From positions 1-64,000 of the forward strand of contig JASTWF010000337.1 of NCBI GenBank assembly GCA_030390025.1: a DNA stretch of 64,000 nucleotides, in the 5' to 3' direction. The notes beneath the pieces are model-generated. The model did no database searches. It was not told the DNA's origin and worked only from the letters and a program-made list of their open reading frames with translations. Origin of the DNA: Squalus acanthias (lineage: Eukaryota). The translations under genes and the position numbers were made by a program. Positions 26,232 to 64,000 of this stretch are shown piece by piece; within the stretch, counting starts at the first letter, position 1, and the number at the start of each line of letters is the position of its first letter.

Positions 26232-28757
26232 TATATTCTCTATAACATACACATGAGCTGCTATTCTCTATAATATACACAGGGGCTGCTATTCCCTATA
26301 ATATACACAGGGGCTGCTATTCCCTATAATATACACAGGGGCTGCTATTCCCTATAATATACACAGGGGCTGCTATTCCCTATAATATACACAGGGCCTG
26401 CTATTCTCTATAATATACACAGGGCCTGCTATTCCCTATAATATACACAGAGGCTGCTATTCTCTATAATATACACAGGGGCTGCTATTCTCTATAATAT
26501 ACACAGGGCCTGCTATTCCCTATAATATACACAGGGGCTGCTATTCTATATAATATACACAGGGCCTGCTATTCTCTATAATATACACAGGGGCTGCTAT
26601 TCTCTATAATATACACAGGGGCTGCTATTCTCTATAATATACACAGGGGCTGCTATTCTCTATAATATACACAGGGGCTGCTATTCTCTATAATATACAC
26701 AGGGGCTGCTATTCTCTATAATATACACAGGGCCTGCTATTCTCTATAATATACACAGGGGCTGCTATTCTCTATAATATACACAGGGCCTGCTATTCCC
26801 TATAATATACACAGGGGCTGCTATTCTATATAATATACACAGGGGCTGCTATTCTCTATAATATACACAGGGGCTGCTATTCTCTATAATATACACAGGG
26901 CCTGCTATTCCCTATAATATACACAGGGGCTGCTATTCTCTATAATATACACAGGGGCTGCTATTCTCTATAATATACACAGGGCCTGCTATTCCCTATA
27001 ATATACACAGGGGCTGCTATTCTATATAATATACACAGGGCCTGCTATTCCCTATAATATACACAGGGGCTGCTATTCTCTATAATATACACAGGGCCTG
27101 CTATTCTCTATAATATACACAGGGCCTGCTATTCTCTATAATATACACAGGGGCTGCTATTCTCTATAATATACACAGGGGCTGCTATTCTCTATAATAT
27201 ACACAGGGCCTGCTATTCTCTATAATATACACAGGGGCTGCTATTCTCTATAATATACACAGGGGCTGCTATTCCCTATAATATACACAGGGGCTGCTAT
27301 TCTATATAATATACACAGGGGCTGCTATTCTATATAATATACACAGGGGCTGCTATTCTCTATAATATACACAGGGGCTGCTATTCTCTATAATATACAC
27401 AGGGGCTGCTATTCTATATAATATGCACAGGGGCTGCTATTCTATATAATATACACAGGGCCTGCTATTCCCTATAATATACACAGGGGCTGCTATTCTC
27501 TATAATATACACAGGGGCTGCTATTCCCTATAATATACACAGGGCCTGCTATTCTCTATAATATACACAGAGGCTGCTATACTCTATAATATACACAGGG
27601 GCTGCTATTCTCTATAATATACACAGGGGCTGCTATTCTCTATAATATACACAGGGGCTGCTATTCTCTATAATATACACAGGGGCTGCTATTCTCTATA
27701 ATATACACAGGGGCTGCTATTCTCTATAATATACACAGGGGCTGCTATTCTCTATAATATACACAGGGGCTGCTATTCTCTATAATATACACAGGGCCTG
27801 CTATTCTCTATAATATACACAGGGGCTGCTATTCTCTATAATATACACAGGGCCTGCTATTCCCTATAATATACACAGGGGCTGCTATTCTATATAATAT
27901 ACACAGGGGCTGCTATTCTCTATAATATACACAGGGGCTGCTATTCTCTATAATATACACAGGGCCTGCTATTCCCTATAATATACACAGGGGCTGCTAT
28001 TCTCTATAATATACACAGGGGCTGCTATTCTCTATAATATACACAGGGCCTGCTATTCCCTATAATATACACAGGGGCTGCTATTCTATATAATATACAC
28101 AGGGCCTGCTATTCCCTATAATATACACAGGGGCTGCTATTCTCTATAATATACACAGGGCCTGCTATTCTCTATAATATACACAGGGCCTGCTATTCTC
28201 TATAATATACACAGGGGCTGCTATTCTCTATAATATACACAGGGGCTGCTATTCTCTATAATATACACAGGGCCTGCTATTCTCTATAATATACACAGGG
28301 GCTGCTATTCTCTATAATATACACAGGGGCTGCTATTCCCTATAATATACACAGGGGCTGCTATTCTATATAATATACACAGGGGCTGCTATTCTATATA
28401 ATATACACAGGGGCTGCTATTCTCTATAATATACACAGGGGCTGCTATTCTCTATAATATACACAGGGGCTGCTATTCTATATAATATGCACAGGGGCTG
28501 CTATTCTATATAATATACACAGGGCCTGCTATTCCCTATAATATACACAGGGGCTGCTATTCTCTATAATATACACAGGGGCTGCTATTCCCTATAATAT
28601 ACACAGGGCCTGCTATTCTCTATAATATACACAGAGGCTGCTATACTCTATAATATACACAGGGGCTGCTATTCTCTATAATATACACAGGGGCTGCTAT
28701 TCTCTATAATATACACAGGGGCTGCTATTCTCTATAATATACACAGGGGCTGCTATT
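26232..28757. repeat. Continuation of the 28-bp satellite (homogeneous block with GGGCCTG variant)
   Basis: Same monomer as 1-20760. The rare variant AGAGGCTGCTATACTC recurs 1064 bp (38 monomers) apart. Confidence 0.97.
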
Positions 28758-38247: not shown

Positions 38248-39846
38248 GTGAGGGGGGATTGTGAGGGGGGATTGTGAGAGGGGATTGTGAGGGGGGGATG
38301 TGAGGGGGGATTTTGAGGGGGGATTGTGAGGGGGGGATGTGAGGGGGGATTGTGAGGGGGGATTGTGAGAGGGCATTGTGAGGGGGTGGATTGTGAGGGG
38401 GGGGATTGTGAGGGGGGGATTGTGAGAGGGCATTGTGAGGGGGTGGATTGTGAGGGGGGGGATTGTGAGGGGGGGGATTGTGAGGGGGGGATTGTGAGGG
38501 GGGGGATTGTGAGGGGGGGATTGTGAGGGGGGGGATGTGAGGGGGGATTGTGAGGGGGGGATGTGAGGGGGGGATTGTGAGGGGGGATTGTGAGGGGGGA
38601 TTGTGAGGAGGGGATTGTGAGGGGGGGATTGTGAGGGGGGATTGTGAGGGGGGATTGTGAGGGGGGGATTGTGAGGGGGGATGTGAGGGGGGATTGTGAG
38701 GGGGGGATGTGAGGGGGGGATTGTGAGGGGGGGATTGTGAGGGGGGGATGTGAGGGGGGATTGTGAGGGGGGGATGTGAGGGGGGGGATTGTGAGGGGGG
38801 ATTGTGAGGGGGGATTGTGAGGGGGGATTGTGAGGGGGGGGATTGTGAGGGGGGGATTGTGAGGGGGGGATTGTGAGGGGGGATTGTGAGGGGGGATTGT
38901 GAGGGGGGATTGTGAGGGGGGATTGTGAGGGGGGATTGTGAGGGGGGATTGTGAGGGGGGATTGTGAGGGGGGGATTGTGAGGGGGGATTGTGAGGGGGG
39001 ATTGTGAGGGGGGATTGTGAGGGGGGATTGTGAGGGGGGATTGTGAGGGGGGATTGTGAGGGGGGATTGTGAGGGGGGATTGTGAGGGGGGGATTGTGAG
39101 GGGGGATTGTGAGGGGGGATTGTGAGGGGGGGATTGTGAGGGGGGGATGTGAGGGGGGATTGTGAGGGGGGATTGTGAGGGGGGATTGTGAGAGGGGGGA
39201 TTGTGAGGGGGGGATTGTGAGGGGGGATGTGAGGGGGGGATTGTGAGGGGGGATGTGAGGGGGGGATTGTGAGGGGGGGATGTGAGGGGGATTGTGAGGG
39301 GGGGATTGTGAGGGGGGGATTGTGAGGGGGGGATGTGAGGGGGGATTGTGAGGGGGGGATTGTGAGGGGGGGATTGTGAGGGGGGGATGTGAGGGGGGAT
39401 TGTGAGGGGGGATTGTGAGGGGGGATTGTGAGGGGGGATTGTGAGGGGGGATTGTGAGGGGGGATTGTGAGGGGGATTTTGAGGGGGGATTTTGAGGGGG
39501 GGATTGTGAGGGGGGGATTGTGAGGGGGGATGTGAGGGGGGATTGTGAGGGGGGGATGTGAGGGGGGGATTGTGAGGGGGGATTGTGAGGGGGGGATTGT
39601 GAGGGGGGGATTGTGAGGGGGGGATTGTGAGGGGGGGATGTGAGGGGGGATTGTGAGGGGGGATTGTGAGGGGGGATTGTGAGGGGGGGATTGTGAGGGG
39701 GGATTGTGAGGGGGGATTGTGAGGGGGGATTGTGAGGGGGGATTGTGAGGGGGGATTGTGAGGGGGGATGTGAGGGGGGATTGTGAGGGGGGGATTGTGA
39801 GGGGGGGGATTGTGAGAGGGGATTGTGAGGGGGGGATGTGAGGGGA
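38248..39846. repeat. G-rich minisatellite, unit about ATTGTGA(G)6-8 (12-15 bp)
   Basis: Directly visible; strongly strand-asymmetric. Confidence 0.97.
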
Positions 39847-42624: not shown

Positions 42625-45450
42625 CCGAGTTCTGTGGGATTAACCCCGAGAGTTCTGTGGGATTAACCCCGAGAGTTCTGTGGGATTAACCCCGAGAGTT
42701 CTGTGGGATTAACCCCGAGTGTTCTGTGGGATTAACCCCGAGAGTTCTGTGGGATTAACCACACGAGTTCTGTGGGATTAACCCCGAGTGTTCTGTGGGA
42801 TTAACCCCAAGTGTTCTGTGGGATTAACCCCGAGAGTTCTGTGGGATTAACCCCGAGAGTTCTGTGGGATTAACCCCGAGAGTTCTGTGGGATTAACCCC
42901 GAGTGTTCTGTGGGATTAACCCCGAGAGTTCTGTGGGATTAACCCCGAGTGTTCTGTGGGATTAACCCCGAGTGTTCTGTGGGATTAACCCCGAGAGTTC
43001 TGTGGGATTAACCCCGAGAGTTCTGTGGGATTAACCCCGAGTGTTCTGTGGGATTAACCCCGAGAGTTCTGTGGGATTAACCCCAAGTGTTCTGTGGGAT
43101 TAACCCCGAGAGTTCTGTGGGATTAACCCCGAGTGTTCTGTGGGATTAACCCCGAGAGTTCTGTGGGATTAACCCCGAGTGTTCTGTGGGATTAACCCCG
43201 AGAGTTCTGTGGGATTAACCCCGAGAGTTCTGTGGGATTAACCCCGAGAGTTCTGTGGGATTAACCCCGAGTGTTCTGTGGGATTAACCCCGCGTGTTCT
43301 GTGGGATTAACCCCAAGTGTTCTGTGGGATTAACCCCGAGAGTTCTGTGGGATTAACCCCGAGAGTTCTGTGGGATTAACCCCGAGAGTTCTGTGGGATT
43401 AACCCCGAGTGTTCTGTGGGATTAACCTCGAGTGTTCTGTGAGATTAACCCCGAGTGTTCTGTGGGATTAACCTCGAGTGTTCTGTGAGATTAACCACAC
43501 GAGTTCTGTGGGATTAGCCACATGAGTTCTGTGGGATTAAACCCGAGAGTTCTGTGGGATTAAACCCGAGAGTTCTGTGGGATTAAACCCGAGTGTTCTG
43601 TGGGATTAACCCCGAGTGTTCTGTGGGATTAACCTCGAGTGTTCTGTGGGATTAACCCCGAGTGTTCTGTGGGATTAACCTCGAGTGTTCTGTGAGATTA
43701 ACCCCGAGTGTTCTGTGGGATTAACCTCGAGTGTTCTGTGAGATTAACCCCGAGTGTTCTGTGGGATTAACCTCGAGTGTTCTGTGGGATTAACCCCGAG
43801 TGTTCTGTGGGATTAACCTCGAGTGTTCTGTGAGATTAACCCCGAGTGTTCTGTGGGATTAACCTCGAGTGTTCTGTGAGATTAACCACACGAGTTCTGT
43901 GGGATTAGCCACATGAGTTCTGTGGGATTAAACCCGAGAGTTCTGTGGGATTAACCCCGAGTGTTCTGTGGGATTAACCCCGAGTGTTCTGTGGGATTAA
44001 CCTCGAGTGTTCTGTGAGATTAACCCCGAGTGTTCTGTGGGATTAACCTCGAGTGTTCTGTGAGATTAACCACACGAGTTCTGTGGGATTAGCCACATGA
44101 GTTCTGTGGGATTAAACCCGAGAGTTCTGTGGGATTAAACCCGAGAGTTCTGTGGGATTAAACCCGAGTGTTCTGTGGGATTAACCCCGAGAGTTCTGTG
44201 GGATTAACCCCGAGTGTTCTGTGGGATTAACCCCGAGTGTTCTGTGGGATTAACCCCGAGTGTTCTGTGGGATTAACCCCGAGTGTTCTGTGGGATTAAC
44301 CCCGAGAGTTCTGTGGGATTAACCCCGAGTGTTCTTTGGGATTAACCCCGAGAGTTCTGTGGGATTAACCCCGAGTGTTCTGTGGGTTTACCCCGAGTGT
44401 TCTGTGGGATTAACCCCGAGTGTTCTGTGGGTTTACCCCGAGAGTTCTGTGGGATTAACCCCGAGAGTTCTGTGGGATTAACCCCGAGTGTTCTGTGCGA
44501 TTAACCCCGAGAGTTCTGTGGGATTAACCCCGAGAGTTCTGTGGGATTAACCCCGAGTGTTCTGTGGGATTAACCCCGAGAGTTCTGTGGGATTAACCCC
44601 GAGTGTTCTGTGGGATTAACCCCGAGTGTTCTGTGGGATTAACCCCGAGTGTTCTGTGGGATTAACCCCGAGAGTTCTGTGGGATTAACCCCGAGAGTTC
44701 TGTGGGATTAACCCCGAGAGTTCTGTGGGATTAACCCCGAGTGTTCTGTGGGATTAACCCCGAGAGTTCTGTGGGATTAACCCCGAGTGTTCTGTGGGAT
44801 TAACCCCGAGAGTTCTGTGGGATTAACCCCGAGTGTTCTGTGGGATTAACCCCGAGAGTTCTGTGGGATTAACCCCGAGTGTTCTGTGGGATTAACCCCC
44901 AGTGTTCTGTGGGATTAACCCCGAGAGTTCTGTGGGATTAACCCCGAGAGTTCTGTGGGATTAACCCCGAGAGTTCAGTGGGATTAACCCCGAGAGTTCT
45001 GTGGGATTAACCCCGAGAGTTCTGTGGGATTAACCCCGAGTGTTCTGTGGGATTAACCCCGAGTGTTCTGTGCGATTAACCCCGAGTGTTCTGTGGGATT
45101 AACCCCGAGAGTTCTGTGGGATTAACCCCGAGTGTTCTGTGGGATTAACCCCGAGAGTTCTGTGGGATTAACCCCGAGTGTTCTGTGGGATTAACCCCGA
45201 GAGTTCTGTGGGATTAACCCCGAGTGTTCTGTGGGATTAACCCCGAGTGTTCTGTGGGATTAACCCCGAGTGTTCTGTGGGATTAACCCCGAGAGTTCTG
45301 TGGGATTAACCCCGAGAGTTCTGTGGGATTAACCCCGAGTGTTCTGTGGGATTAACCCCGAGTGTTCTGTGGGATTAACCTCGAGTGTTCTGTGGAATTA
45401 ACCCCGAGTGTTCTGTGGAATTAACCCCGAGTGTTCTGTGGAATTAACCC
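42625..45450. repeat. 23-bp minisatellite GATTAACCCCGAGWGTTCTGTGG (about 120 copies)
   Basis: 23-nt periodicity is visible (GATTAAC at 42661, 42684...). Confidence 0.98.
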
Positions 45451-50537: not shown

Positions 50538-51782
50538 TGTGTTTGAGTGTGTGTGTGTGAGAGTTTGAGTGTGTGTGTGTTTGAATGTGTGTGTGAGTTT
50601 GAGTGTGTGTTTGAGTGTGTGTGTGCGTGTGAGTTTGAGTGTTTGTTTGAGTGTGTGTGCGTGAGTTTGAGTGTTTGTTTGAGTGTGTGTTTGAGTGTGT
50701 GTTTGAGTGTGTGTGCGTGTTTGAGTGTGTGTGTGTGAGTTTGAGTGTGTGTTTGAGTGTGTGTGCGTGTGAGTTTGAGTGTTTGTTTGAGTGTGTGTGC
50801 GTGAGTTTGAGTGAGTGTTTGAGTGTGTGTTTGAGTGTGTGTTTGAGTGTGTGTGCGTGTTTGAGTGTGTGTGTGAGTTTGAGAGTGTGTGTGTGAGTTT
50901 GAGTGTGTGTGTGTGAGTTTGAGTGTTTGTTTGAGTGTGTGTGCGTGAGTTTGAGTGTGTGTTTGAGTGTGTGTGCGTGTGAATTTGAGTGTTTGTTTGA
51001 GTGTGTGTTTGAGTGTGTGTTTGAGTGTGTGTGCGTGTTTGAGTGTGTGTGTGTGAGTTTGAGTGTGTGTTTGAGTGTGTGTGCGTGTGAGTTTGAGTGT
51101 TTGTTTGAGTGTGTGTTTGAGTGTGTGTGCGTGTTTGAGTGTGTGTGTGTGTGAGTTTGAGTGTTTGTTTGAGTGTGTGTTTGAGTGTGTGTGCGTGTTT
51201 GAGTGTGTGTGTGTGAGTTTGAGTGTGTGTTTGAGTGTGTGTGCGTGTGAGTTTGAGTGTTTGTTTGAGTGTGTGTTTGAGTGTGTGTGCGTGTTTGAGT
51301 GTGTGTGCGTGTGAGTTTGAGTGTTTGTTTGAGTGTGTGTTTGAGTGTGTGTGCGTGTTTGAGTGTGTGTGTGTGTGAGTTTGAGTGTGTGTTTGAGTGT
51401 GTGTGCGTGAGTTTGAGTGTGTGTTTGAGTGTGTGTGCGTGTGAGTTTGAGTGTTTGTTTGAGTGTGTGTTTGAGTGTGTGTGCGTGTTTGAGTGTGTGT
51501 GTGTGTGAGTTTGAGTGTGTGTTTGAGTGTGTGTGCGTGTTTGAGTGTGTGTGTGTGAGTTTGAGAGTGTGTGTGTGTGAGTTTGAGTGTGTGTTTGAGT
51601 GTGTGTGCGTATTTGAGTGTGTGTGTGTGAGTTTGAGAGTGTGTGTGTGTGAGTTTGAGTGTGTGTTTGAGTGTGTGTGCGTATTTGAGTGTGTGTGTGT
51701 GAGTTTGAGAGTGTGTGTGTGTGAGTTTGAGTGTGTGTGTGTAAGTTTGAGTGTGTGTTTGAGCATGTGTGTGTGTGAGTTT
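50538..51782. repeat. Compound (GT)n/TTTGA microsatellite
   Basis: Directly visible. Confidence 0.97.
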
Positions 51783-51784
51783 GC

Positions 51785-52740
51785 GTGAGGACAGGAGGAG
51801 GGCCACCTTCAATTGCCCATTTGACCAACGCTGAGGAGGCTGTACTCAAAATCATCGGAGGTGCTAAGGATCTGGAAGTGAGGGACGGTCAGACGGGCGC
51901 CGCAGAGCAAGCTGGTGACAGAATAGATTTGCATCTCTCTCATTGACATTGCATGAGTGACTGATATGGCATCTGATGCTCATACAGATTGAGTTATGAT
52001 CATCTGTACAATTCCATGTGCATGCTACGTTAATATCACGTGTCTAACTCATGCCTTTACTCCCCCATAGGACCATCGACAGCCCCCCTCCCCACTGTCC
52101 AGGAGGAAGAGCAGGAAGACTCCTCAGAGGAAGCTGCAACCTCTGAGGGCGCAGCGTCAGCAGAATTAAGCGCACCCAGCACCAGCGCAGACCTCGGTGG
52201 GACCTTCGGGAGATAGAGTAGTGTTGTGACCTGGTGTATCACAGCTCACAAGTGAGCATCAGCAGATGGTGGAGACAGGGACAGCAGTGCTCAGCTGCAT
52301 GTCGACCCTGTGCCTCCGGGTCCATCCAGAAGGAGAGCGATGATTGAACTCCAGGAACAGGTGCAGGAGTCTCTGGCAGATTTTGTCTCCAGGGTCACTG
52401 CGAGTGTGGAGAGGATGGAGGAGTCCATGTCTAACATGAGCATTGCCTTTGTGGAGGCATTGGCGCATGAATGCATCACCATGGAAAGGATGGCAACCTC
52501 CGTGGAAAGGCTGGCTATGGTCATGGAGGAAATAAGTCGCCAGAGTCAGGAAAACATGGTGAATATTCGGAATAGACTGACATCTCTGGAGGAGCGATGG
52601 GCAGCTATTAAGCAGGGAGACCAGAGCTTCATGGAAGTCCTTTTGAGGAGGACTGCCAGTGCAGATACGGCTCCTTATGACCCCCCTGATGTGCAGCAAG
52701 GTGCTGTCCAGCCACTTGCTGGCACTGAAGTGGGGCTGAC
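51785..52740 (+). pseudogene. Harbinger-associated Myb/SANT-like protein gene remnant, 5' part (two exons)
   Basis: 51785-51914 reads VRTGGGPPSIAHLTNAEEAVLKIIG. GT at 51915, CTAAC branch point and AG at 52070. An acidic low-complexity segment and a coiled coil follow (ORF 52310-52753). Confidence 0.65.
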
Positions 52741-53366
52741 TGTAGAAATATGAACTGGTGAATTGTGCCTTTAGAAAATGGTCGAGGACTTGCAAAAACT
52801 GCAGCCAGTGAGATCTCAAATAAACAAAACCTTGAAGCTGGGGGCCGAGGGCTGCTCAAATAACATAGTTAACAGGCCTGCAAAAGATGACAAGCTTGCA
52901 GGATGATCGAGTCTACGACAATAATTAACTCAAGATAAGGGTGACAATCTAGTCTAACGGTTGAGCAGTCGCAAACCACATAATAAGGGACCTCTGGAAT
53001 TCCCTAACCGACCAAGGATACCGATTGGCTAAGGATGGACACATCTCAGACAAAATGGCCGAATCTGCACACGGCACGCCTTGACCATTCTGTTGTGATG
53101 ATCACAGAAGCTGTGAGCTAACTGTCAACTGATCAACTTTCAAACGGGTAATATTGTTTTAAGCTAGCACACATGGGGAGTGAGCCCTGTGTCATTTTCC
53201 TTGTAAGTTATTCAAACAACTTGTTAACCAATAAAGTACTAAATGTATGCAACTTACTGAGTGTGACCGACATTTGACACTCTGAACTAAGAACCATAAC
53301 TGTTGAACTGTTGTTGAGCTGACTACTTATTACTAGCTCAATAGATACAGTGAATTTAGGACAACA
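52741..53366 (+). repeat. 5' LTR (626 bp; lacks about 203 bp present in the 3' LTR)
   Basis: TGTAGAAATATG...GGACAACA; AATAAA at 53230; direct repeat of 62569-63389. Confidence 0.95.
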
Positions 53367-53369
53367 AAC

Positions 53370-53387
53370 TGGCGACTCTGGCGGGAC
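53370..53387 (+). promoter_or_regulatory. Primer binding site, probably tRNA-Arg(UCU)
   Basis: TGGCGACTCTGGCGGGAC lies 3 nt after the LTR. It is complementary (17/18) to the 3' end ...GTCCCACCAGAGTCGCCA of vertebrate tRNA-Arg-TCT as recalled from memory. Confidence 0.78.
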
Positions 53388-53543
53388 TTTTGACTTGAGA
53401 TGTGGGACTTTTCAAGAAGGATAAATTAAAAGTGTCAAACGGAACGAGTTGGAATCTTAAAAATAAGATGCTACGTTACGGGATAACAATGGCGAGTAAT
53501 AAAGGGGCGACCTCCCAGAGTTGCGAAGAACAGTATAATAAAT

Positions 53544-55828
53544 TAATTTTTGTGGTTATAGTTTCTAAGGTCTCTGTTGTGTAGCGGGGAGTGCTAGTAA
53601 ACAAGGGCCCTTGAGTATATCATTTAATTGTAGTGTAATTAGTGGCATTGATTTGATTTAATTTAATTTAAATTAATTAAATGGTAAGTCATGGCAGCAC
53701 AGCTCGGCCCCGTGGTATGCTCCTCCTGCACTATGTGGGAAATCAGGGACACTTCCTGTGTCCCTGACGACCATGTGTGCGGGAAGTGTATCCAGCTGCA
53801 GCTACTGGCAGACCGCATTGTGGCGCTGGAGCTGCGAATGGATACATAATGGAGCATTCGCGATGCTGAGGATGTCATGGATAGCACATTTAACCGCAGG
53901 TAAAGGCTGCACAGGCAGGAAGGGAATGGGTGACCACCAGGCAGAGTAGAAGGCGCAGGCAGGTAGTGCAGGGGTCCCCTGTGGCCATCCCCCTCTCAAA
54001 CAGATATACCACTTTGGATATTGTTGAGGGAGATGGCTTATCGGGGGAAGGCAGCAGCAACCAACTTCCTGGCACCATGGGGGGTTCTGCTGCACAGGAC
54101 GGAAGGAAAAAGAGCAGGAGAGCTATAATGATAAGGGAATTCTATTGTAAGGGGAATAGATAGGCATTTCTGCGGCCGCAAACGAGACTCCAGGATGGTG
54201 TGTTACCTCCCTGGTGCAAGGGTCAAGGACGTCTCGGAGCGGCTACAGAACATTTTGGAGGGGGAGGACGAACAGCCAGTTGTCGTGGTGCATATAGGTA
54301 CCAACGATATAGGTAAAAACCGGGATGAGGGCCTAAAAGCTGAATATATGGAGTTAGGAGGTAAATAAAAAAATAGGACCCCAAAGGTAGTAATCTCAAG
54401 ATTGCTACCAGTGCCATATGCAAGTCAGAGTAGAAATAGAAGGATATTTCAGATGAATACATGGCTACAGGAATGGTGCAAGGGGGAGGGATTCAAATTC
54501 CTGGGACATTGGAACCGGTTCTGGGGCAGGTGGGACCAGTACAAACTGGACGGTTTGCACCTGGGCAGGACCGGGACTGATGTCCTAGGAGGAGTGTTTG
54601 CTAGTGCTGTTGGGGAGGGTTTAAACTAAAATGGCAGGGGGTTGGGAACCTGTGCAGGGAGACAGAGGAAAGGGAAGCAAGGATAGAAGCAAAAGACAGG
54701 AAGGAGAAAAGCAAAAGTGGCAGTCAGAGAAATCAAGGGTGTAAATCAAACATGACCACAGTAAATAATAATTCTAAAAGGTCTAAGAGTGTTAAAAAAA
54801 CAAGCCTGAAGGCTTTGGGTCTAAATGCAAGGAACATTCGTAATAAGGTGGATGAATTAGCTGCGCAAATAGATGTAAACGGATATGATATAATTGAGAT
54901 TACGGAGACATGGCTCCAAGGTGACCAAGGATGGGAATTCAACATCCAGGGGTATTCAATATTCAGGAAAGCCAGGCAAAAAGGAAAAGGAGGTGGGGTA
55001 GCATTGCTGGTTAAAGAGGAGATTAACACAATAGTAAGGAAGGATATTAGCTCTGATGATGTGGAATCTGTATGGGTAGAGCTGAGAAATACCAAGGGGC
55101 AGAAAATGTTAGTGGGAGTTGTATACAGACCCCCAAACAGTAATGCTGAGGTTGGGGATGGCATTAAATGGGAAATTAGAGATGCGTGCAATAAGGGCAC
55201 AGCAGTTATCATGGGTGACTTTAATCTACATATAGATTGGGCTAACCAAATTAGTAACAATACTGTGGAGGAGGAATTCCTGGAGTGTATACGGGATGGT
55301 TTCCTGGACCAATATGTTGAGGAACCAACTAGAGATCAGGCCATCTTAGACTAGGTATTATGTAATGAGAAAGGATTAATTAGCAATCTTGTGCGAGGCC
55401 CCTTGGGGAGGAGCGATCATAATATGATAGAATTCTTCATTAAGATGGAGAGTGAAGTAGTTGACTCAGAGACTAGGGTCCTGAATTTAAATAAAGGAAA
55501 CTACGATGGTATGAGGCATGAGTTGGCTAGGATGGATTGGGAAACATTACTTAAAGGGTTGATGGTGGATAGGCAATGGCAAACATTTAAAGATCGCATG
55601 GATGAACTACAGAATTTGTTCATCCCTGTTTGGCATTAAAATAAAACAAAAAAGGTGACTCAACCGTGGCTAACAAGGGAAATTAGGGATAGCATAAGAT
55701 CCAAGGAGAGGACATATAAATTGGCCAGAAAAAGCAGTAAACCTGAGGATTGGGAGCAGTTTAGGATTCAGCAAAGGAGGACAGAGGGATTAATTAAGAG
55801 GGGGAAAATAGAGTATGAGACTAAGCTT
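53544..55828 (+). mobile_element. CR1 5' half (5' UTR, ORF1, APE) occupying the gag/pro position of the provirus
   Basis: Same subfamily as 20765-26231. ORF1 ATG at 53691; APE ORF 54752-55354. It ends abruptly and joins retroviral RT sequence. Confidence 0.92.
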
Positions 55829-55829
55829 C

Positions 55830-58260
55830 CTCCTGGAACAAGGCATACTTAGACCTATCGCGTCTACCAATAACTCACCCATTTGGCCAGTCCAAAAGCC
55901 TGATAAATCATAGCGCATGACTATAGACTACCGAGTATTAAATAAAGTCATGCCTTCAGCAGCGCCCACGGTCATCACTGCACCAGAGGCTGCCCTCAAT
56001 TTTTCCCCAACCGCAAAATTCTTCACAGTATTGGATATTAGTAATGGATTTTGGTCCATACCGTTGGCCAAGGAATGTCAGTATAAATTTGCATTCACTC
56101 ATAAAGGACAACAATACACTTGGACTTGTTTGCCCCAAGGTTTCCATAATAGCCCCTCGATATTCTCGAATATGACAACAAATGGGTTAAAGGGATTTTC
56201 TCAACCCTCAGCCCTTGTTCAGTATGTAGATGATATCCTACTCCAAACAGACACCCTTGAGAAACACGAGATCCTGTTACAAGAACTATTAGTAACTCTG
56301 TACAGATTAGGGGTTAAAATAAACCCGAAAAAGGCACAGATTGGAAAACCAAAAGTGCAATATTTAGGGATGCAAGTAACCCAGGGGGCACGGGAGTTGA
56401 CCGAAGATAGAAAGAAGTCTGCCGCCACCTTACCCCACCCCCACAGACGTCAAATCCCTCAGGTCCTTTTTAGGGATTACAGGGTACTGCCGGGATCACA
56501 TTGAGGACTACTCTGTGGTCACCAAACCCTTGTATAATCTACTATAAAAGGGGGTGCTATGGGAATGGACCCAAGAACATGCGAACTCGTTCGGTAAATT
56601 AAAGTCAGCATTGATCCAAGCCCCTGCACTACGAAACCCAGACATGTCTTCGAGCTTTTATCTGGAAACGGCCTCGAGCAAAGATGGTCTGTCAGCGGTA
56701 TTGCTGCAGGAACACTCTGCAAAGCTCCAACCTGTTGGTTACGCAGGGACAATATAGAATGAAAAAGGTTAAAGCCCATGTAAAAACCACACCATTAGGA
56801 AATCAATTAGCAGATGAAGCAGCAAAACAAGGAGCTATTGATGGTTACCTATGGGACCCTCTGCAGGGAAAGGAAGGCACACTAACAGAAACCCTTCGGC
56901 TGTCAAGGTAACCTCCAAGACAGTAATAGATCTAAGGGAGAGCCAAAGCTCTGACCCGGATCTGAACAATATCCAATTAGGAAAGCCTTATCCCGAACCA
57001 TATAGTCAATATAGAACCGGTTTAATTTTAAATCAAGGGGTGGTGCTAAAGAACGGAAGATATGTGGTACCGGAGGTGGATAGACCCGAAATAATTTACC
57101 AGTTCCATGATGTGGGAGGACACCAGGGGATAGATAGAACTACTGCCAAGATTAGGGATGTATGCTGGTGGCCAGAAATACAATCAGATGTAGAGAAATA
57201 CGTCAAGAACTGTCTGATTTTTGCTCAAAATAACCCTGGGAAATACAAGAATCAGGCTTTAATGGGACGCACTCGACAGGGCAAGAGCCCCGGGCCCAAC
57301 TTCAGATAGATTATATAGGGCCACTGCTCACCTGCCCAGGAGGAAAGAAGTACATATTGGTAATAGTAGATGTATTTTCTAAATGGATTGAGGCCTTCCC
57401 AACCAATAACAATTCAGCTGCCACTACCGTCAAAATCCTAATGGAAGAAGTGTTCTCCCGATGGGGATTACCCGAAAGCATCGACTCAGATCAAGGGACC
57501 CATTTTACTGGGCAGGTCATGAGATCGGTCATGCAGTTGGCTGGGGTAAAACAGGATTTTCACATTTCATACCATCCAGAGTCCAGTGGGATAGTAGAAA
57601 GAATGAAGAGGACCCTAAAAACTATGATGAGGAAATTGGTCCAACAAAATCATACCTCCTGGCATAGGGTTGCTCCCTTCTGCATTAATGGCCATCCGGA
57701 ACACGGTGGTAGCATCCACCGGCTGCTCACCACATGAGTTCATGACAGGAAGGATTCTGAAAGGTATCGAGGCATTTATGGGTAGGGACCTAAGTGAAAT
57801 CCAGAAGACATCCTTGTCATCTGAAAAATACATGACTGATTTGGTGAAGTATTTGGAAGCGGCAAAAATGACCGCAGCCGTAAAAATGGGAAAAAGGCAT
57901 CAGAAAAGTAAAGCCTATTTTGACGGGAAAACCCACCCATGGGAAGTCAAGATAGGTGACCAGGTCATGGTTAAGGTCCAAAGGGAGGGAACATTCCTGA
58001 GCCCAAAATATGCAGGGCCCTTTAGAGTAATGGAAAAAGCTAGTCCCTCCGTATATAAGATAATGGACGGACAAGGAAAGTAAAAAAGGCACCACATCCA
58101 TCAGTTAAAAACTTTCGGGAAAGTGGATAGTTTTCACCAGTACCATGTACAACTGGATGCTTCAGACCCCCAGGGATTGGATGAAGGAAATGATGGTTCA
58201 GATGACGGTAACAAATCAGATAGGTCGATCAGGACTCAACAGGTCTGGTGGACGGAGTAG
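55830..58260 (+). pseudogene. pol: Proviral pol: RT, RNase-H-like tether, RNase H C-terminus, integrase (HHCC, DDE, GPY/F)
   Basis: RT: LLEQGILRP..NSPIWPVQKPD, LDISNGFWSIPL, YTWTCLPQGFHNSP, YVDD. Tether: FYLETASSKDGLSAVLLQ. RNase H: KVKAH..GNQLADEAAK. Integrase: HDVGGHQG..WWP..C, QIDYIGPL, SDQGTHF, SSGIVER, PKYAGPF. Stops and frameshifts throughout. Confidence 0.93.
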
Positions 58261-58517
58261 GGAACCTGTTCCTAAATGATGAACGGGACCCAAATGAATC
58301 TCCTCCTAACTCACCAATAAGGGAGACAGCGAGTACCGGGTCAGCAAATTTCATGGCTGCCACTCACCGACTCCTTGGTTGGGCACACCTACTTGGAATG
58401 GATCGCTCCTCAAAGACCCCTCGTTTACAAAGGGTGACTGATATATAAGAAATAATTCATAAACTGTACATAAGAGCAGCTAGTATCTTGATCATGTTTG
58501 TATGTGTTTAGAAATGA

Positions 58518-61500
58518 ATGCCGGAAATAATTCCAGTCGAAACCTCAGACGACTATCGCAATCGTTATCAAGAATGGAGTGAGGAGCTGTTCTGGACCCT
58601 TTTTCCATCTGGGACTTTTGATGTTCGGAACATTCTTTATCCTATGGATCATCCATCAAATATGAAAGAATAGGGGACACCAACAGAACAACGAAGAAGG
58701 ACAAGAGGAAATAGAAACATAGAAACATAGAAAATAGGTACAGGAGTAGACCATTCGGTCCTTCGAGCCTGCACCGCCATTCAATGCGTTCATGGCAGAA
58801 CATGCTAACTCAGTACCCCATTCCTGCTTTCTCGCCATACCCCTTGATCCCCCTAGTTGTGAGTGTTATATCTAACTCCCTTTTGAATATATTTAGCGAA
58901 CTGGCCTCAACAACCTTCTGTGGAAGAGAATTCCACAGATTCACCACTCTCTGGGTGAAGAAGTTCCTCCTCATCTCAGTCTTAAATGGCTTCCCCTTTA
59001 TCCTTAGACTGTGACCCCTGGTTCTAGTTTTCCCTCACATTGGAAACATTCTGCCCGCATCTAATTTGTCTAAACCAGTCAGGATTTTAAACGTCTCTAT
59101 AAGATCCCCCCTCATTCTTCTGAACTCCAGAGGATACAAGTTCAGTTGATCCAGTCTTTCTTGATATGTCAGTCTGGCCATCCCAGGAATCAATCTAGTG
59201 AACCTTCGTTGCACTCCCTCAATAGCAAGAATGTCCTTCCTCAAGTTAGGAGACCAAAACTGCACACAATACTCCAGGTGTGGCCTCACCAAGGCCCTGT
59301 ACAACTGTAGCATCACCTCCCTACTCCTGTACTCAATTCCCCTTGCTATGAAGGCCATCATGCCATTTGCTTTCTTGACTGCCTGCTGCACTTGCCTTCC
59401 CACCTTCAGTGACTGATGTGCCATGACGCCCAGGTCTCGTTGCACCTCCCCTTTCCCTAATCTGCCACCACTCAGGTAATAGTCTGCCTCCCTATTTTTA
59501 CCACCAAAGTGGATAACCTCACATTTATCCACATTGTACTTCATCTGCCATACATTTGCCCATTCACCCAACCTGTCCAAGTCACTCTGTAGCCTCCTAG
59601 TATCCTCCTCATTGTTCACACTGCCTCCCAATTTAGTGTTATCCGCAAATTTGGAGATATTACAATTAATCCCTTCATCCAAATCATTAATATATAATGT
59701 AAACAGCTGGGGCCCCAGCACCGAACCCTGTGGTACCCCGCTGGTCACTGCCTGCCATTCTGAAAAGTACCCATTTACTCCTACTCTTTGTTTCCTGTGT
59801 GCCAACCAGTTCTCAATCCACGTCAACACATTACCCCCAATCCCATGTGCTTTAACTTTGCACACCAATCTCTTGTGTGGGACCTTGTCGAAGGCCTTCT
59901 GAAAGTCCAAATACACCACATCTACTGGTTCCCCCCCATCCACCCTATTGGAAACATCCTCAAAAAATTCCAGAAGATTTGTCAAGCATGATTTCCCTAT
60001 CACAAATCCATGCTGACTTGGACCTATCATGTCGCCACTTTCCAAATGGTCTGTTATGACATCTTTAATAATTGATTCCATCATTTTACCCACCACCGAT
60101 GTCAGGCTGACTGGTCTATAATTCCCTGCTTTCTCCCTCCCTCCTTTTTTAAAAAGAGGGGTTACATTAGCCACCCTCCACTCCTTCGGAACTCATCCAG
60201 AGTCTAAGGAATGTTGGAAAATGATCGTCAATGCATCCACTATTTCCAAGGCCACCTCCTTAAGTACTCTGGGATGCAGACCATCAGGCCCTGGGGATTT
60301 ATCAGCCTTCAGTCCCATCAATTTCCCCAACACCTTTTCCCGACTGATAAGGATTTCCCTCAGCTCCTCCCTCTTACCAGATCCTTTGATCTCTTTTATT
60401 TCCGGAAGGTTGTTTGTGTCCTCCACAGTAAACACCGAACCAAAATACTTGTTCAATTGATCTGCCATTTCTTTGTTCCCCATTATGACTTCCCCTGTTT
60501 CTGACTGCAGGGGACCTACGTTTGTTTTTACTAACCTCTTTCTTTTTACATATTTATAGAAGCTTTTGCAGTCCGTTTTAATGTTCTCCGCAAGCTTCCT
60601 TTCATATTTTATTTTCCCTGCCCTAATCAAACCCTTCGTCCTCCTCTGCTGAGTTTTAAAGTTCTCCCAGTCCCCAGGTTTGCTGCTACTTCTGGCCAAT
60701 TTGTATGCCACTTCCTTGCTTTTAATACTATCCCTGATTTCCCTTGTTAGCCATGGTTGAGCCACCTTCCCTTTTTTATTTTTACGCCAGACAGGGATGT
60801 ACAATAGAGGCGGTTCGACAATGACGTGTTATATAATATTAACTTGTGTACTTATGATATGTGTAGAATTAAACAGGGTACTGGGTGAACAGAAGGTGAT
60901 TCTCACCTCCGGGGACACAGACTATAATAGCGCGAATTGTATCGCAGAGTTTAGTCACTGGAAGGCCCCTACCCACGGAAACCATGAGTGTAGCTGCAGT
61001 GGGATGGCTAGGACATGCCACCAGACTAGCTATGCGGGGAACCTGACTAGGGTGTGTGTGACTTGCAGCCATACTAATCAAGGTAAACGATCTATAGTCT
61101 GGCAGGCAAAGGCCGAGAAGGATGGAATATACACAGTATCGTCAGGAGCCAATCCACTAAGTAGAGCAAATTGTACCATCGAGGGCAGAAAGGTATGTTG
61201 TCAGATGGATCCACAGGCAAAGAGTTTACACTTATTCATGGGATGTAGTAGTAATAGGGCGGTGGGAAACCTGACTTCTAATGCAAGGGTCTCCCAGAGA
61301 CCTAATTGCTCCTGCGAAAGTCAAGTGAAGATCATAGTTCATCAGCTCCCTTCCACACCCACCCCAGGACCAACTCCCACCCCTATGACCACTTCCCCAT
61401 TCCCACCCACTCTGGCTCCTCCGACAGAATGTCTCCAAGAAACGTTCGGACCAAAGGGAGGAGTTGTATTCAGAACCACTGGCGAGATTGTGTATGATAA

Positions 61501-62451
61501 TGTACAGTATGCTTTGGTACCCATCGTTTTGAATATGTCAGATATCCAGCTGCCCGCCTGGTGTCCTACTAAACTGCAATAAATTCACCGAGACTTGATT
61601 AAGGGGTTGCTCCAACAGGAAATAGGCAATAATACTGGGGGGAACCGTACCCAGGAAGGAGCAAGTGAGAGCAAGAAGGAATGAAGTTAGCGGAGTTTAA
61701 GAATATAGGGACAATACAGGAAGGAATATGGATGAGGTTTGATAATCTGTTACCATATGCTGTCGAACTAGATGGTACCCTAGTCGGTACCACCCTAAAT
61801 CAATGTCAACAAACTGACCAAACGGTAATATGCCCCGATAAGATTTATCCAACTAACGCGGCAAGATGTGGGTTCAATGGGATCAAAACCCTAAATCGTA
61901 CGCTGGTAGTGGAATCTACCACTGGAAGAATCGAGAGAACCGGCTATCAGGGAAATAGAACTTACTGTTTTACCACAACCAAGGTCAGCTATCACTATGG
62001 AAACAGGGAATGTCCCATAGAAACCCCGACTTTCTGTCTGCACCCTTTAATACCGATGAGATTGGGTAATGAAGAAATTATCGATATCGAGCGAAGAGAA
62101 ACGGTTCAGATTAATGTGGCTGACGGCCTGAAAGGAAACTTGGAGAATTACTTTGGAAAATATGACATCAGTATCCAATTAGAGAAGGAACATTTGATTA
62201 GGATCAAGCATCAGCTTGAACTGATACATCAGACTTACATACGAGTGGAACAGAACACACAGGAAAATGGCAAGGACATAAAGAGCATCAAGATAGACAC
62301 ATGGTGGGATGAAATATGGAATTGGGGTACAAATGTCAATATACACCCATGGATTAGAATATTCTCACACATTACAGTTATTCTAATTACTGTAATATTC
62401 CTGTGTCTGTGTGTCACCTGGAGAAGTATGATGAGATTGGAAAAAGATTGA
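58518..62451 (+). pseudogene. env: Proviral env, F-fusion-glycoprotein-like; split by a CR1 and internally deleted
   Basis: ATG at 58518 follows a splice-acceptor-like TGTTTAG. Removing the CR1 restores the frame to the hydrophobic YIILTCVLMICV. A Cys-rich domain, PT-rich linker, RARR (61668-61679), Cys-rich segment, heptad region, WWDEIWNW and TM (IFSHITVILITVIFLCLCVTW) follow. Confidence 0.82.
58716..60802 (-). mobile_element. Young 5'-truncated CR1 LINE inserted in env
   Basis: ORFs 60193-60804 and 59035-60174, (CATAGAAA)n tail, and AATAGA duplicated at 58710-58715 and 60803-60808. Confidence 0.95.
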
Positions 62452-62557
62452 AGGGGCGACTCGGAATGATGGAGACGGGGCAAGTGATGAAGATGGAAGA
62501 CCGGAGGAGGCTACTAACTACGAAAGGTGATCAATATAATCGATGATTAAAATGATC

Positions 62558-62568
62558 AAAGGGAGGAG
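62558..62568 (+). promoter_or_regulatory. Polypurine tract
   Basis: AAAGGGAGGAG immediately precedes the TG of the 3' LTR. Confidence 0.88.
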
Positions 62569-63389
62569 TGTAGAAATATGAACTGGTGCCTTTAGAAAAT
62601 GGTCGAGGACTGCGAAAACTGCAGCCAGTGAGATCTCAAATAAACAAAACCTTGAAGCTGGGGGCCTAGGGCTGCTCAAATAACAGAGTTAACAGGCCTG
62701 CAAGAGATGACAAGCTTGCAGGATGATCGAGTCTACAACAATAATTAACTCAAGATAAGGGTGACAATCTAGTCTAACGGTTGAGCAGTCGCAAACCACA
62801 TAATAAGGGACCTCTGGAATTCCCTAACCGACCAAGGATACCGATTGGCTAAGGATGAACACATCTCAGACAAAATGGCCGAATCTGCACACGGCACGCC
62901 TTGACCATTCTGTTGTGATGATCACAGAAGCTGTGAGCTAACTGTCAAGAGGTCTCATGACTGATTAGAGCAACCTTGTGCAAACGGTCTTATCGGTGGG
63001 GGGGGGGTGGGGGGGGGGGCACATAGGTAGTAAAAATATCGATATAAAAGAAGGGAGCCAAGAGCTAGTTTAGCAGCGAGAACCTGGGAATCACACTTGA
63101 GAAGGGAGGAGCCACAAGTCTGGGACTTGTTGTAGGACACCAGCGCGAAGGCTGATCAACTTTCAAACGGGTAATATTGTTTCAAGCTAGCACACATGGG
63201 AAGTGAGCCCTGTGTCATTTTCCTTGTAAGTTATTCAAACAACTTGTTAACCAATGAAGTACTGAATGTATGCAACTTACTGAGGCCGACCGACATTTGA
63301 CACTCTGAACTAAGAATCATAATTGTTGAACTGTTGTTGAGCTGACTACTTATTACTAGCTCAATAGATACAGTGAATTCGGGACAATA
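62569..63389 (+). repeat. 3' LTR (821 bp)
   Basis: TGTAGAAATATG...GGACAATA (terminal CA mutated to TA). G-tract near 62998-63019 and TATAAAA at 63043. Confidence 0.95.
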
Positions 63390-63704
63390 CTGACCCATGA
63401 GGGAGGTGTTGGTGGCAGGCAACAAGGAAGTGTGGGCTCCTCTCCAAGCGCTCACACTGCCATGCCACTGCGGAGCCCTTGATCAGAGCCCCACCAGAGT
63501 CCTCACCCAACTGAGATTGGCGTCTCAGCCCCTGCACAGACGCAGGAGTAGCAAACTGTTGCCGAGCCCTCCCAGGATCGCAAACCCAGAGGATGCCCGC
63601 CAAAGGTGTCGAAGCAGCAGCAGCATGAAAGTGAGCAAGGTGCCTCCACATCTGCGGAAGCACCACGTAGAAGCACGCATAAGAGGAAGATAAAGCACAA
63701 ATAG
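63390..63704 (+). pseudogene. Harbinger Myb/SANT-like gene remnant, 3' part
   Basis: In frame with 52310-52740 once the provirus and one TSD copy are removed (GLT-HEGGVGG...). It ends KPRGCPPK...APRRSTHKRKIKHK* and has two internal stops. Confidence 0.6.
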
Positions 63705-64000
63705 TCACAAGGGTAGTCACTTGGGTGTTCTGTTCTGTTGTCTTTTGTTCTGTTTAATATTTGCCATTGTCATCCTTTTGTGTATGTATTAAACAAAAGT
63801 GATGGCAAACAGTTGAAGTTCTGGCCTATGTGTTCTGGAAAATGGAAGTTGCACATTGATGGCTCAGGGCGACTGGCATTTGTAATGATGGTGGTGAGAG
63901 TGATACATTGTGTATGATCTGTTAAGAAGGTGCCAGCCACATGTATTTGATTCATCTACCTAAGCGAATCTGTCAAAGATTAGTGCATCCCTTGCATCTG

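Follow-up and report, generated by a model that had tools for sequence, protein, structure and literature searches.

The window analysed here, a stretch of 64,000 nucleotides from the Squalus acanthias contig JASTWF010000337.1, harbours a dead germ-line copy of a retrovirus that falls outside classes I and II and is probably allied to snakehead retrovirus (SnRV) and its clade Huo, with a predicted envelope protein (Env) of the F type. The provirus is real and is one dead copy, destroyed by two CR1 pieces and several deletions. The following features were found, given by window position and strand:

51788..52735, + strand: left part of the host target, a copy of a Harbinger-type DNA transposon, which continues at 63395-64000
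52736..52740, + strand: left copy of the TSD CTGAC, single in 4/4 empty paralogous sites
52741..53366, + strand: 5′ LTR, TG...CA, 626 nt (LTR alignment)
53370..53387, + strand: PBS, 3 nt past the 5′ LTR, 18/18 complement of the 3′ end of host tRNA-Arg(TCT)
53489..53547, + strand: remnant of the gag start, ~20 codons (compared with sibling Gag)
53548..55828, + strand: 5′ half of a CR1-type LINE, occupying the place of gag-pro (Exo_endo_phos 6e-11, Lipase_GDSL_2 9e-4)
55829..56500, + strand: RT, N-terminally truncated (RVT_1 1.9e-31, Pfam)
56548..56744, + strand: tether, the degenerate first RNase H (RT_RNaseH_2 8e-16, Pfam)
56745..56840, + strand: second RNase H, of which a C-terminal remnant is left (RNase_H 6e-5, Pfam, below the cut-off; the whole domain scores 2e-17 in a sibling)
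57067..58080, + strand: integrase with HHCC zinc domain, DDE core and GPF/SH3-like C-terminus (Pfam: Integrase_H2C2 2e-19, rve 7e-18, SH3_Tf2-1 5e-7)
58716..60802, − strand: 5′-truncated CR1-type LINE with RT and short tandem tail (RVT_1 4e-32)
60821..62451, + strand: env, with a signal-like stretch at 60827-60883 and TM at 62359-62415
62558..62568, + strand: PPT (sequence reading)
62569..63389, + strand: 3′ LTR, 821 nt (LTR alignment)
63390..63394, + strand: right copy of the TSD CTGAC (empty-site comparison)

The structural elements that an earlier note on this DNA had reported were recovered. In particular, the two LTRs were 3.0% apart (K2P 0.030 over 618 aligned columns), the 5′ LTR being without 203 nt found in the 3′ LTR, including the sole TATAAAA motif, and the 3′ LTR ending in TA where siblings end in CA. 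Moreover, the four host-repeat paralogues fetched all had CTGAC once, followed by the 3′ flank of the window (45-52 of 56 bases), and since it is single in empty sites that continue into this flank, CTGAC is a true 5-bp TSD. The target belonged to a Harbinger-type repeat (3726 candidates, 40 of them scored, at 92-94%), of which one paralogue contained DDE_Tnp_4 and Myb_DNA-bind_5; the LTR-flank junction was not found among the contigs listed. The PBS, the PPT, the quoted RT motifs, the two RNase-H-like regions and the integrase after RNase H likewise stood, the tether plus RNase H bearing out a retrovirus-type pol, and both a TM-like hydrophobic stretch and a signal-like stretch were seen in env, which had been described as TM-anchored.

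CR1 LINE DNA, as we presume both LINE pieces to be from their domain layout, accounted for ~4.4 kb of the provirus span. The first piece carries an esterase-like ORF1 piece and an endonuclease, and the second sits immediately upstream of the env signal peptide. The remaining gag and the protease are absent from the window copy, the RT has one stop and one frameshift, the tether is cut by a deletion of ~0.7 kb relative to the siblings, and the integrase is frameshifted. Furthermore, env is broken by one stop and by a frameshifting deletion of ~0.54 kb, which takes out the cleavage site, the fusion peptide and the first heptad region. The CR1 content, the reduction of gag to ~20 codons and the losses of the protease and of this env segment had not appeared in the earlier note.

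A total of ~24 related env-bearing loci were found in the genome, and the family is burst-like, the copy trees being star-like (of their 18 and 16 inner branches, a single one was starred in each) and compatible with either one or several origins of the env deletion. The env-deleted variant represents the majority of copies, the same env deletion being common to 14 of the 20 scorable ones. Gag, whose recovery from related copies had been proposed, could be read in the siblings as a non-myristylated protein with one zinc knuckle (CCHC intact in 13 of the 14 siblings showing it) and a coiled coil, called from weak Pfam matches and a crude heptad score. The family thus has a Gag zinc finger, together with a GPF/Y motif in pol, and showed no dUTPase match. 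Moreover, gag and pol lie in one frame across a UGA-CUG stop in all 15 siblings keeping the junction, out of 20 examined, while RNA structure 3′ of the UGA was not significant in the one sibling analysed (z −1.3 against base shuffles). Within the family, the primer switches between two tRNA-Arg isoacceptors. A scan of IMG/VR with pro-RT gave no match, and there was no RNA run among the sequencing runs listed as carrying family sequence.

To place pol, an RT tree of 40 rows was used, in which foamy viruses, Odin, ERV-L and CmiERV had no reference row, Loki was represented by two Loki-type RTs identified by motif against the alignment of PMC7947760, and SnRV by P0038, whose RT by eye resembles the SnRV row of that alignment. 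Of the RT and IN trees proposed by the earlier note, the former placed the element among retroviruses, while the latter left the window, its relatives and Loki in a polytomy (no CGIN1 row). In particular, the window RT fell inside the retrovirus clade (100/97), with the Loki-type RTs outside the clade holding it (100/99); ten gamma/epsilon-like rows, so named from their host and motifs, formed a separate 100/99 clade that excluded it, and ten Gypsy-type RTs were separated from it at 100/99. A clade joining the window RT with the Loki-type RTs was rejected (AU p=0.003), whereas one that unites the window and its nine nearest relatives with SnRV and a class-III-like RT from a bird was not (p=0.36), SnRV grouping weakly (87/67) with other lineages in the best tree and not with the window RT. 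The closest pol relatives were frog and coelacanth ERV proteins (49-56% RT identity); the RT was 46% identical to the SnRV-like P0038 and 38-41% to the Loki-type RTs. In contrast, the integrase was 44-45% identical to Loki-type proteins vs. 31% to SnRV, and the tether 36-37% vs. 30%.

The env product is arranged as a Cys-rich N-terminal arm, a Pro/Thr linker, an F-like core, TM and a very short tail, with ~12 residues past the TM and ~0.1 kb to the LTR, which leaves no space for a 3′ ORF. An F-type fusion protein is predicted from a structural model of a sibling Env and from a language-model search (Atlas), in which the top match was Fusion_gly (0.93). The model, with a pLDDT of 66 overall and mostly 80-98 in the core, matched RSV F in Foldseek (E 1e-10), PIV5 F with Z 11.8 over 315 residues and foamy Env with Z 7.2, in support of the F-like reading of the earlier note. 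Models of walleye epsilonretrovirus Env also matched the F-type fold. A single-sequence model of Env was set aside (pLDDT 36). Pfam and PDB sequence searches with Env and 12 relatives gave nothing informative, apart from a weak Pfam match to Baculo_F (0.005), and a word-based homologue search returned 0 matches among 6884 candidates. Env relatives occurred in five shark genera and two frogs; there were 40 hits, the longest of 749 aa, and none of the 10 looked up by name was named SnRV. The host is likely a cartilaginous fish, as the earlier note had supposed; a beta-globin exon compared with PDB gave no placement of it. A literature search, with subscription papers, Repbase and bioRxiv supplements outside its scope, found no paper describing an F-like Env for retroviruses of the SnRV, epsilon or class-III type.

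These results bear on several other readings. A lokiretrovirus, as the earlier note had proposed, would be the first in cartilaginous fish; the note's statement that reported hosts did not include these animals was correct, with lokiretroviruses absent from 6/6 chondrichthyan genomes (Wang and Han, PMC7947760). The F-like Env, the dual RNase H, the good scores of integrase and tether against Loki-type proteins and a Gag start resembling by eye that of Loki-Bsp speak for this identity. However, it appears refuted on the RT sequence, which defines the group, by the tree and AU test given above and by a PFG signature present in 24/24 Loki RT rows of the PMC7947760 alignment (by eye) vs. PQG here. 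Moreover, Gag had no BLASTP similarity to the Loki-type polyprotein, and an exact search of the genome for the Loki RT motif pattern gave 0 matches, which is weak evidence. Nor does an F-like Env by itself identify Loki, since foamy Env is F-like and walleye Env models match as well. Overall, a lokiretrovirus is very improbable. A fish foamy-like ERV is just as improbable, even with foamy Pol as the best PDB sequence match for pro-RT (197 bits vs. 184 for MLV-type RT) and the match of foamy Env to the Env model, as the in-frame gag-pol readthrough, the zinc knuckle, the 5-bp TSD and the tRNA-Arg PBS are unlike foamy viruses, and the RT motifs differ by eye from the foamy rows of the PMC7947760 alignment. 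An env-carrying Ty3/Gypsy element of errantivirus type would agree with the F-type Env widespread among invertebrate Gypsy elements (10.1101/2023.10.26.564294) and with the Baculo_F match, but it is practically negligible in view of the tether plus second RNase H and the RT split from Gypsy-type RTs. The view of the earlier note that this is neither an ordinary Gypsy nor a foamy element was thus upheld.

A doubtful reading, though one of some weight, is that the shark, frog and coelacanth ERVs make up a deep, unnamed retroviral branch of their own, outside the SnRV clade, in which the Loki-like integrase and the F-type Env would, tentatively, have been kept ancestrally or gained by recombination. 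Against it, the grouping with SnRV was not rejected, the Gag traits and readthrough match SnRV, the long SnRV branches could account for the low IN identity, and SnRV-related ERVs are known in a cartilaginous fish, the elephant shark (CmiERV lineage I, PMC4422223).

Under the preferred SnRV-allied reading, tRNA-Arg and the PPT would have served as primers on the genomic RNA, and Gag-Pol would have been produced by leaky readthrough of UGA-CUG. The integrase would have made a 5-bp staggered cut, in this case in a transposon of the Harbinger type. Full-length Env may have been cleaved at an arginine run, with membrane fusion then proceeding as in paramyxovirus F. The env variant without fusion machinery likely arose by template switching of the RT at a short repeat, and could have spread within germ cells or by using the Env of full-length relatives, the window copy being then presumably killed by CR1 insertions, deletions and point mutations.

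Taken by itself, the locus amounts to an ordinary decayed ERV, and ERVs related to SnRV were already known from a cartilaginous fish. Of interest is that a canonical retroviral RT is combined here with a predicted F-type Env and a Loki-like integrase. F-like Env was considered a mark of lokiretroviruses absent from canonical retroviruses by Wang and Han, who left four scenarios for its origin standing (PMC7947760). Linked to a canonical RT and orthoretrovirus-style readthrough, the predicted Env suggests that this marker is no longer exclusive and speaks for a common ancestor with an F-type envelope, adding to the foamy structures of 2024. It may perhaps be, though this is rather unlikely, that the shark/frog/coelacanth branch, in which a canonical RT goes with a Loki-like integrase and a minimal F-type Env, represents deep unnamed retroviruses. 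If so, together with foamy Env and the walleye matches, retroviruses would ancestrally have had an F-type fusogen as their envelope, which gamma-, beta- and lentiviruses would later have replaced. The Env-origin scenarios would then be settled in favour of an ancestor shared with lokiretroviruses. Furthermore, the family illustrates tRNA-Arg isoacceptor switching and shows how an env variant unable to drive fusion has spread.

Compared with known systems, the stretch modelled from a sibling Env is predicted to share over its residues 164-559 the fold of RSV F (3RKI) and PIV5 F (2B9B), at only 10-14% identity and with an extra Cys-rich N-terminal arm of ~150 residues, which is not confidently folded in the shark ERV. 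Ty3/Gypsy elements of errantivirus type have a single RNase H and an RT in Metaviridae, in contrast to the tether and second RNase H found here, while Odin retrotransposons are without env, with an RT sister to Loki, whereas the shark ERV has env and an RT inside retroviruses. Foamy viruses share with it the paramyxo/pneumovirus F core in Env and an RT similarity comparable to that with MLV, but the shark Env is the shorter of the two and has a better score against F proper. Foamy Pol is made separately from Gag, unlike the readthrough Gag-Pol of the shark ERV, which also differs in its zinc knuckle, 5-bp TSD and Arg primer. Foamy Gag has no zinc finger (PMC2717909), and the F-like structure of foamy Env is given by 8RM0/8RM1 (PMC11468914). 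ERV4 of crocodilians and turtles is similarly a non-class-I/II ERV with a 5-bp TSD, env and no dUTPase match, but without the Gag zinc finger and GPF/Y motif of the shark family (PMC4299795, Table 1). Lokiretroviruses (PMC7947760) resemble it in an F-like Env that has a signal peptide, a basic cleavage site, heptads and a TM, in the integrase, and in the tether plus RNase H, a feature common to all retroviruses; in contrast, the shark RT lies inside canonical retroviruses without the PFG signature, its Gag is unrelated by BLASTP and no extra smc-like ORF was seen.

Finally, SnRV shares common RT motifs, gag-pol in one frame across a stop with readthrough and, with the siblings, a non-myristylated coiled-coil Gag with one knuckle. 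Its primer is reportedly tRNA-Arg (described by Hart in 1996), as is the primer here (18/18). On the other hand, the SnRV stop is UAG-GGC instead of UGA-CUG, its Env tail has 136 residues and is accompanied by accessory ORFs, and its integrase is the more distant one. The Gag traits and readthrough are those described for the SnRV type (PMC2717909), and SSSV, ZFERV and a toad ERV are reported to read through UGA (PMC13517186). Overall, an affiliation with SnRV and clade Huo, the ERV group to which SnRV was assigned by Xu 2018 (PMC6001957), is likely.

The element was found to be a real, decayed provirus of a retrovirus outside classes I and II, and not a lokiretrovirus. The following features were annotated in the window:

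1-20758: 28-bp satellite array, 742 copies
26234-28757: array of the same 28-bp unit, 90 copies
38248-39845: 13-bp array
42629-45450: 23-bp array
Elsewhere in the window: 40-bp and 73-bp arrays
50538-51787: TG-rich tract
52741-63389: provirus, with LTRs of 626 nt (5′) and 821 nt (3′)

The two LTRs differed by a K2P distance of 0.030 (618 aligned columns), and the 5′ LTR lacked 203 nt, the segment in which the sole TATAAAA motif lies. The motif CTGAC appeared at both flanks of the provirus, which had inserted into a high-copy Harbinger-type transposon; as all four fetched paralogues of this transposon carried CTGAC only once, running on into the 3′ flank, the duplication was considered real. 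Moreover, the primer-binding site (PBS, 53370-53387) matched host tRNA-Arg(TCT) at 18/18 positions, and Pfam placed the pol domains in the order RT, tether (the degenerate first RNase H), RNase H remnant, and integrase zinc, core and SH3-like domains. The earlier note had described a provirus with two RNase-H-like regions and integrase after RNase H, and both descriptions held. A total of 4.4 kb of the provirus was LINE DNA in two pieces, the first standing in place of almost all of gag and the protease, and the second preceding the env signal peptide. A 213-nt inverted repeat (79%; 55616-55828 and 60592-60804) is merely the overlap of these pieces in opposite orientation. Furthermore, pol and env carried stops, frameshifts and deletions, and this copy is unable to encode a working virus.

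Related copies (siblings) were found elsewhere in the genome. The 3′ env piece matched 19 other loci over its full length (93-97%) and about five in part; an LTR probe gave 105 candidates, and the 40 that were scored all reached at least 96%. Among the 20 copies fetched, none had an uninterrupted pol. In the 13 with both ends visible, target-site duplications (TSDs) were perfect over 5 bp in eight, matched over 4 bp only in two and were absent in three, with LTR distances of 0.012-0.034. The copy trees were star-like with end branches of about 1.5%, a pattern as after one burst. With the rate assumed for shark, 2.2e-10 per site per year (PMC4422223), the window insertion would be ~68 million years old, or ~7 million with a mammalian rate, both rates being assumptions that may not apply. 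Sequencing runs from six organism codes contained near-identical sequence; four of these were examined at contig level, and the deleted env junction described below was crossed by contigs belonging to two other organism codes. Sibling LTRs fell into two length classes (~715 and 820-840 nt), and each class was combined with either form of env, deleted or longer, a sign that copies have recombined with one another.

Other arrangements were also observed. Contig C944 carried five LTR matches and C16 had two near each other at 52.4-52.6 Mb, perhaps copies amplified within a larger duplicated unit. At G000:C6:89.89 Mb the same flank followed both LTRs of one copy (L001/L002) and no TSD was seen, which suggests local duplication or recombination. 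Another family within this lineage, sister to the present one (L059, G000:C26:3901500-3911499), showed 77-81% identity in pol and 58% amino-acid identity in the Env tail, with a larger env deletion of its own.

No sibling among the 12 whose primer site was listed carried the tRNA-Arg(TCT) form of the PBS; two were exact to tRNA-Arg(TCG) and the remaining ones resembled that form, one being partly deleted. This suggests a primer switch between tRNA-Arg isoacceptors within the family. The genome also contained big tandem tRNA gene arrays on contigs C26, C27 and several small contigs, with 120 exact matches to the Arg(TCT) pattern (~2.06-kb spacing) and 422 to Arg(TCG) (~1.62 kb). The primer of snakehead retrovirus (SnRV) is reportedly tRNA-Arg.

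The sibling Gag started with Met-Ala. Its coiled-coil signals, between residues ~108 and ~240, were weak, and its single CCHC knuckle was intact in 13 of the 14 copies showing it. The gag-pol junction was kept in 15 of 20 siblings; in each of these 15, pol was in frame across CAA-UGA-CUG, from which we infer readthrough from gag into pol. According to PMC13517186, the stop that is read through is UGA in SSSV, ZFERV and a toad ERV and UAG in SnRV; for alphaviruses it lists UGA-CUA/CGG. The sibling Pol comprised protease, RT, tether, RNase H and integrase.

In the longer sibling env, an arginine run precedes a hydrophobic stretch and heptads. A shared deletion of ~0.54 kb at a short repeat, which takes out all three and shifts the frame, was found in 14 of 20 scorable elements (21 examined), including the window copy, while the segment was retained in six. 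Env had no sequence match in Pfam or PDB, nor did a word-based homologue search return any. A full HMMER search yielded 40 relatives; of ten looked up by name, six came from five shark genera and two from frogs. A 619-residue sibling stretch was modelled together with 37 of these relatives, giving a pLDDT of 66, with most of the core at 80-98, most of the first 150 residues below 50 and no confident fold for the N-terminal arm. The model matched RSV F (E 1e-10) and PIV5 F (Z 11.8 and rmsd 7.7 over 315 residues). Z exceeded 9.7 for nine F proteins; the next unrelated chain reached 7.7 and foamy Env 7.2. An Atlas search agreed (Fusion_gly 0.93), and among viral models (BFVD) the matches were lispi-, filo-like, baculo- and paramyxovirus fusogens together with walleye epsilonretrovirus and foamy Env. 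The F-like env proposed from the sequence is well supported as a predicted fold.

The F-like model was matched in BFVD at E 9e-8 by the predicted Env of walleye epidermal hyperplasia virus 1, at 5e-6 by that of walleye dermal sarcoma virus and at 3e-4 by that of feline foamy virus. No paper was found stating such a match for an epsilonretrovirus Env, or on F-like Env in SnRV-, epsilon- or class-III-type retroviruses, although closed supplements, subscription papers or Repbase could contain one. An Ig-like N-terminal region was indicated in some Env relatives (P0181, P0206) by UniRef name and a weak V-set match (0.045).

An alpha-globin exon gave as top single-domain PDB matches 1cg5, 1gcv and 3mkb (82, 74 and 71 bits; next 63), which we take to be ray and shark haemoglobins. 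Together with the closest Env relatives being shark, this makes a cartilaginous fish the likely host, as had been supposed.

To place the element, 40 RT rows (28 retrovirus-type, two Loki-type and ten Gypsy-type) were chosen from 176 proteins obtained by protein searches; the RT and integrase trees were built without foamy, Odin, ERV-L, ERV4 and CmiERV (elephant-shark ERV) rows. The labels are our own, from the alignment in the lokiretrovirus paper PMC7947760: Loki-type for P0128/P0129 from the Loki signature in RT, and SnRV-like for P0038 from comparison by eye with the SnRV row. The window RT fell within the retrovirus clade (100/97), outside its gamma/epsilon-like clade and with the Loki-type rows outside, and a 103-row quick tree without Loki gave the same split from Gypsy. 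Moreover, holding it with the two Loki-type RTs was rejected (p=0.003), so that by RT it is not a lokiretrovirus, and the claim of a first shark lokiretrovirus fails. The earlier note's statement that reported Loki hosts included no cartilaginous fish agrees with PMC7947760 (0/6 chondrichthyan genomes). On the other hand, a constraint joining SnRV and a bird class-III-like RT to the window RT and the nine relatives closest to it was not rejected (p=0.36). In the elephant shark, ERV lineage I groups with SnRV (PMC4422223), and clade Huo, to which SnRV belongs, infects all major vertebrate lineages (PMC6001957). However, integrase and tether were nearer to Loki-type proteins than to SnRV, the integrase tree left the window, its relatives and the Loki-type rows in a polytomy, and the long Env tail and accessory ORFs of SnRV were absent in the window's family, which argues against a simple SnRV label.

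The remaining value of the element lies in a predicted F-type Env on a canonical RT, a combination relevant to how retroviral Env arose. Further literature behind the comparisons comprises PMC12193657, PMC9040795, PMC4299795, PMC2717909, PMC11468914, PMC12583693, PMC12440569, PMC10435555, PMC8672886, bioRxiv 2023.10.26.564294 and bioRxiv 2024.03.17.585361. Compared with the lokiretroviruses, the element would be alike in how its Env works, but by RT it is not a member.
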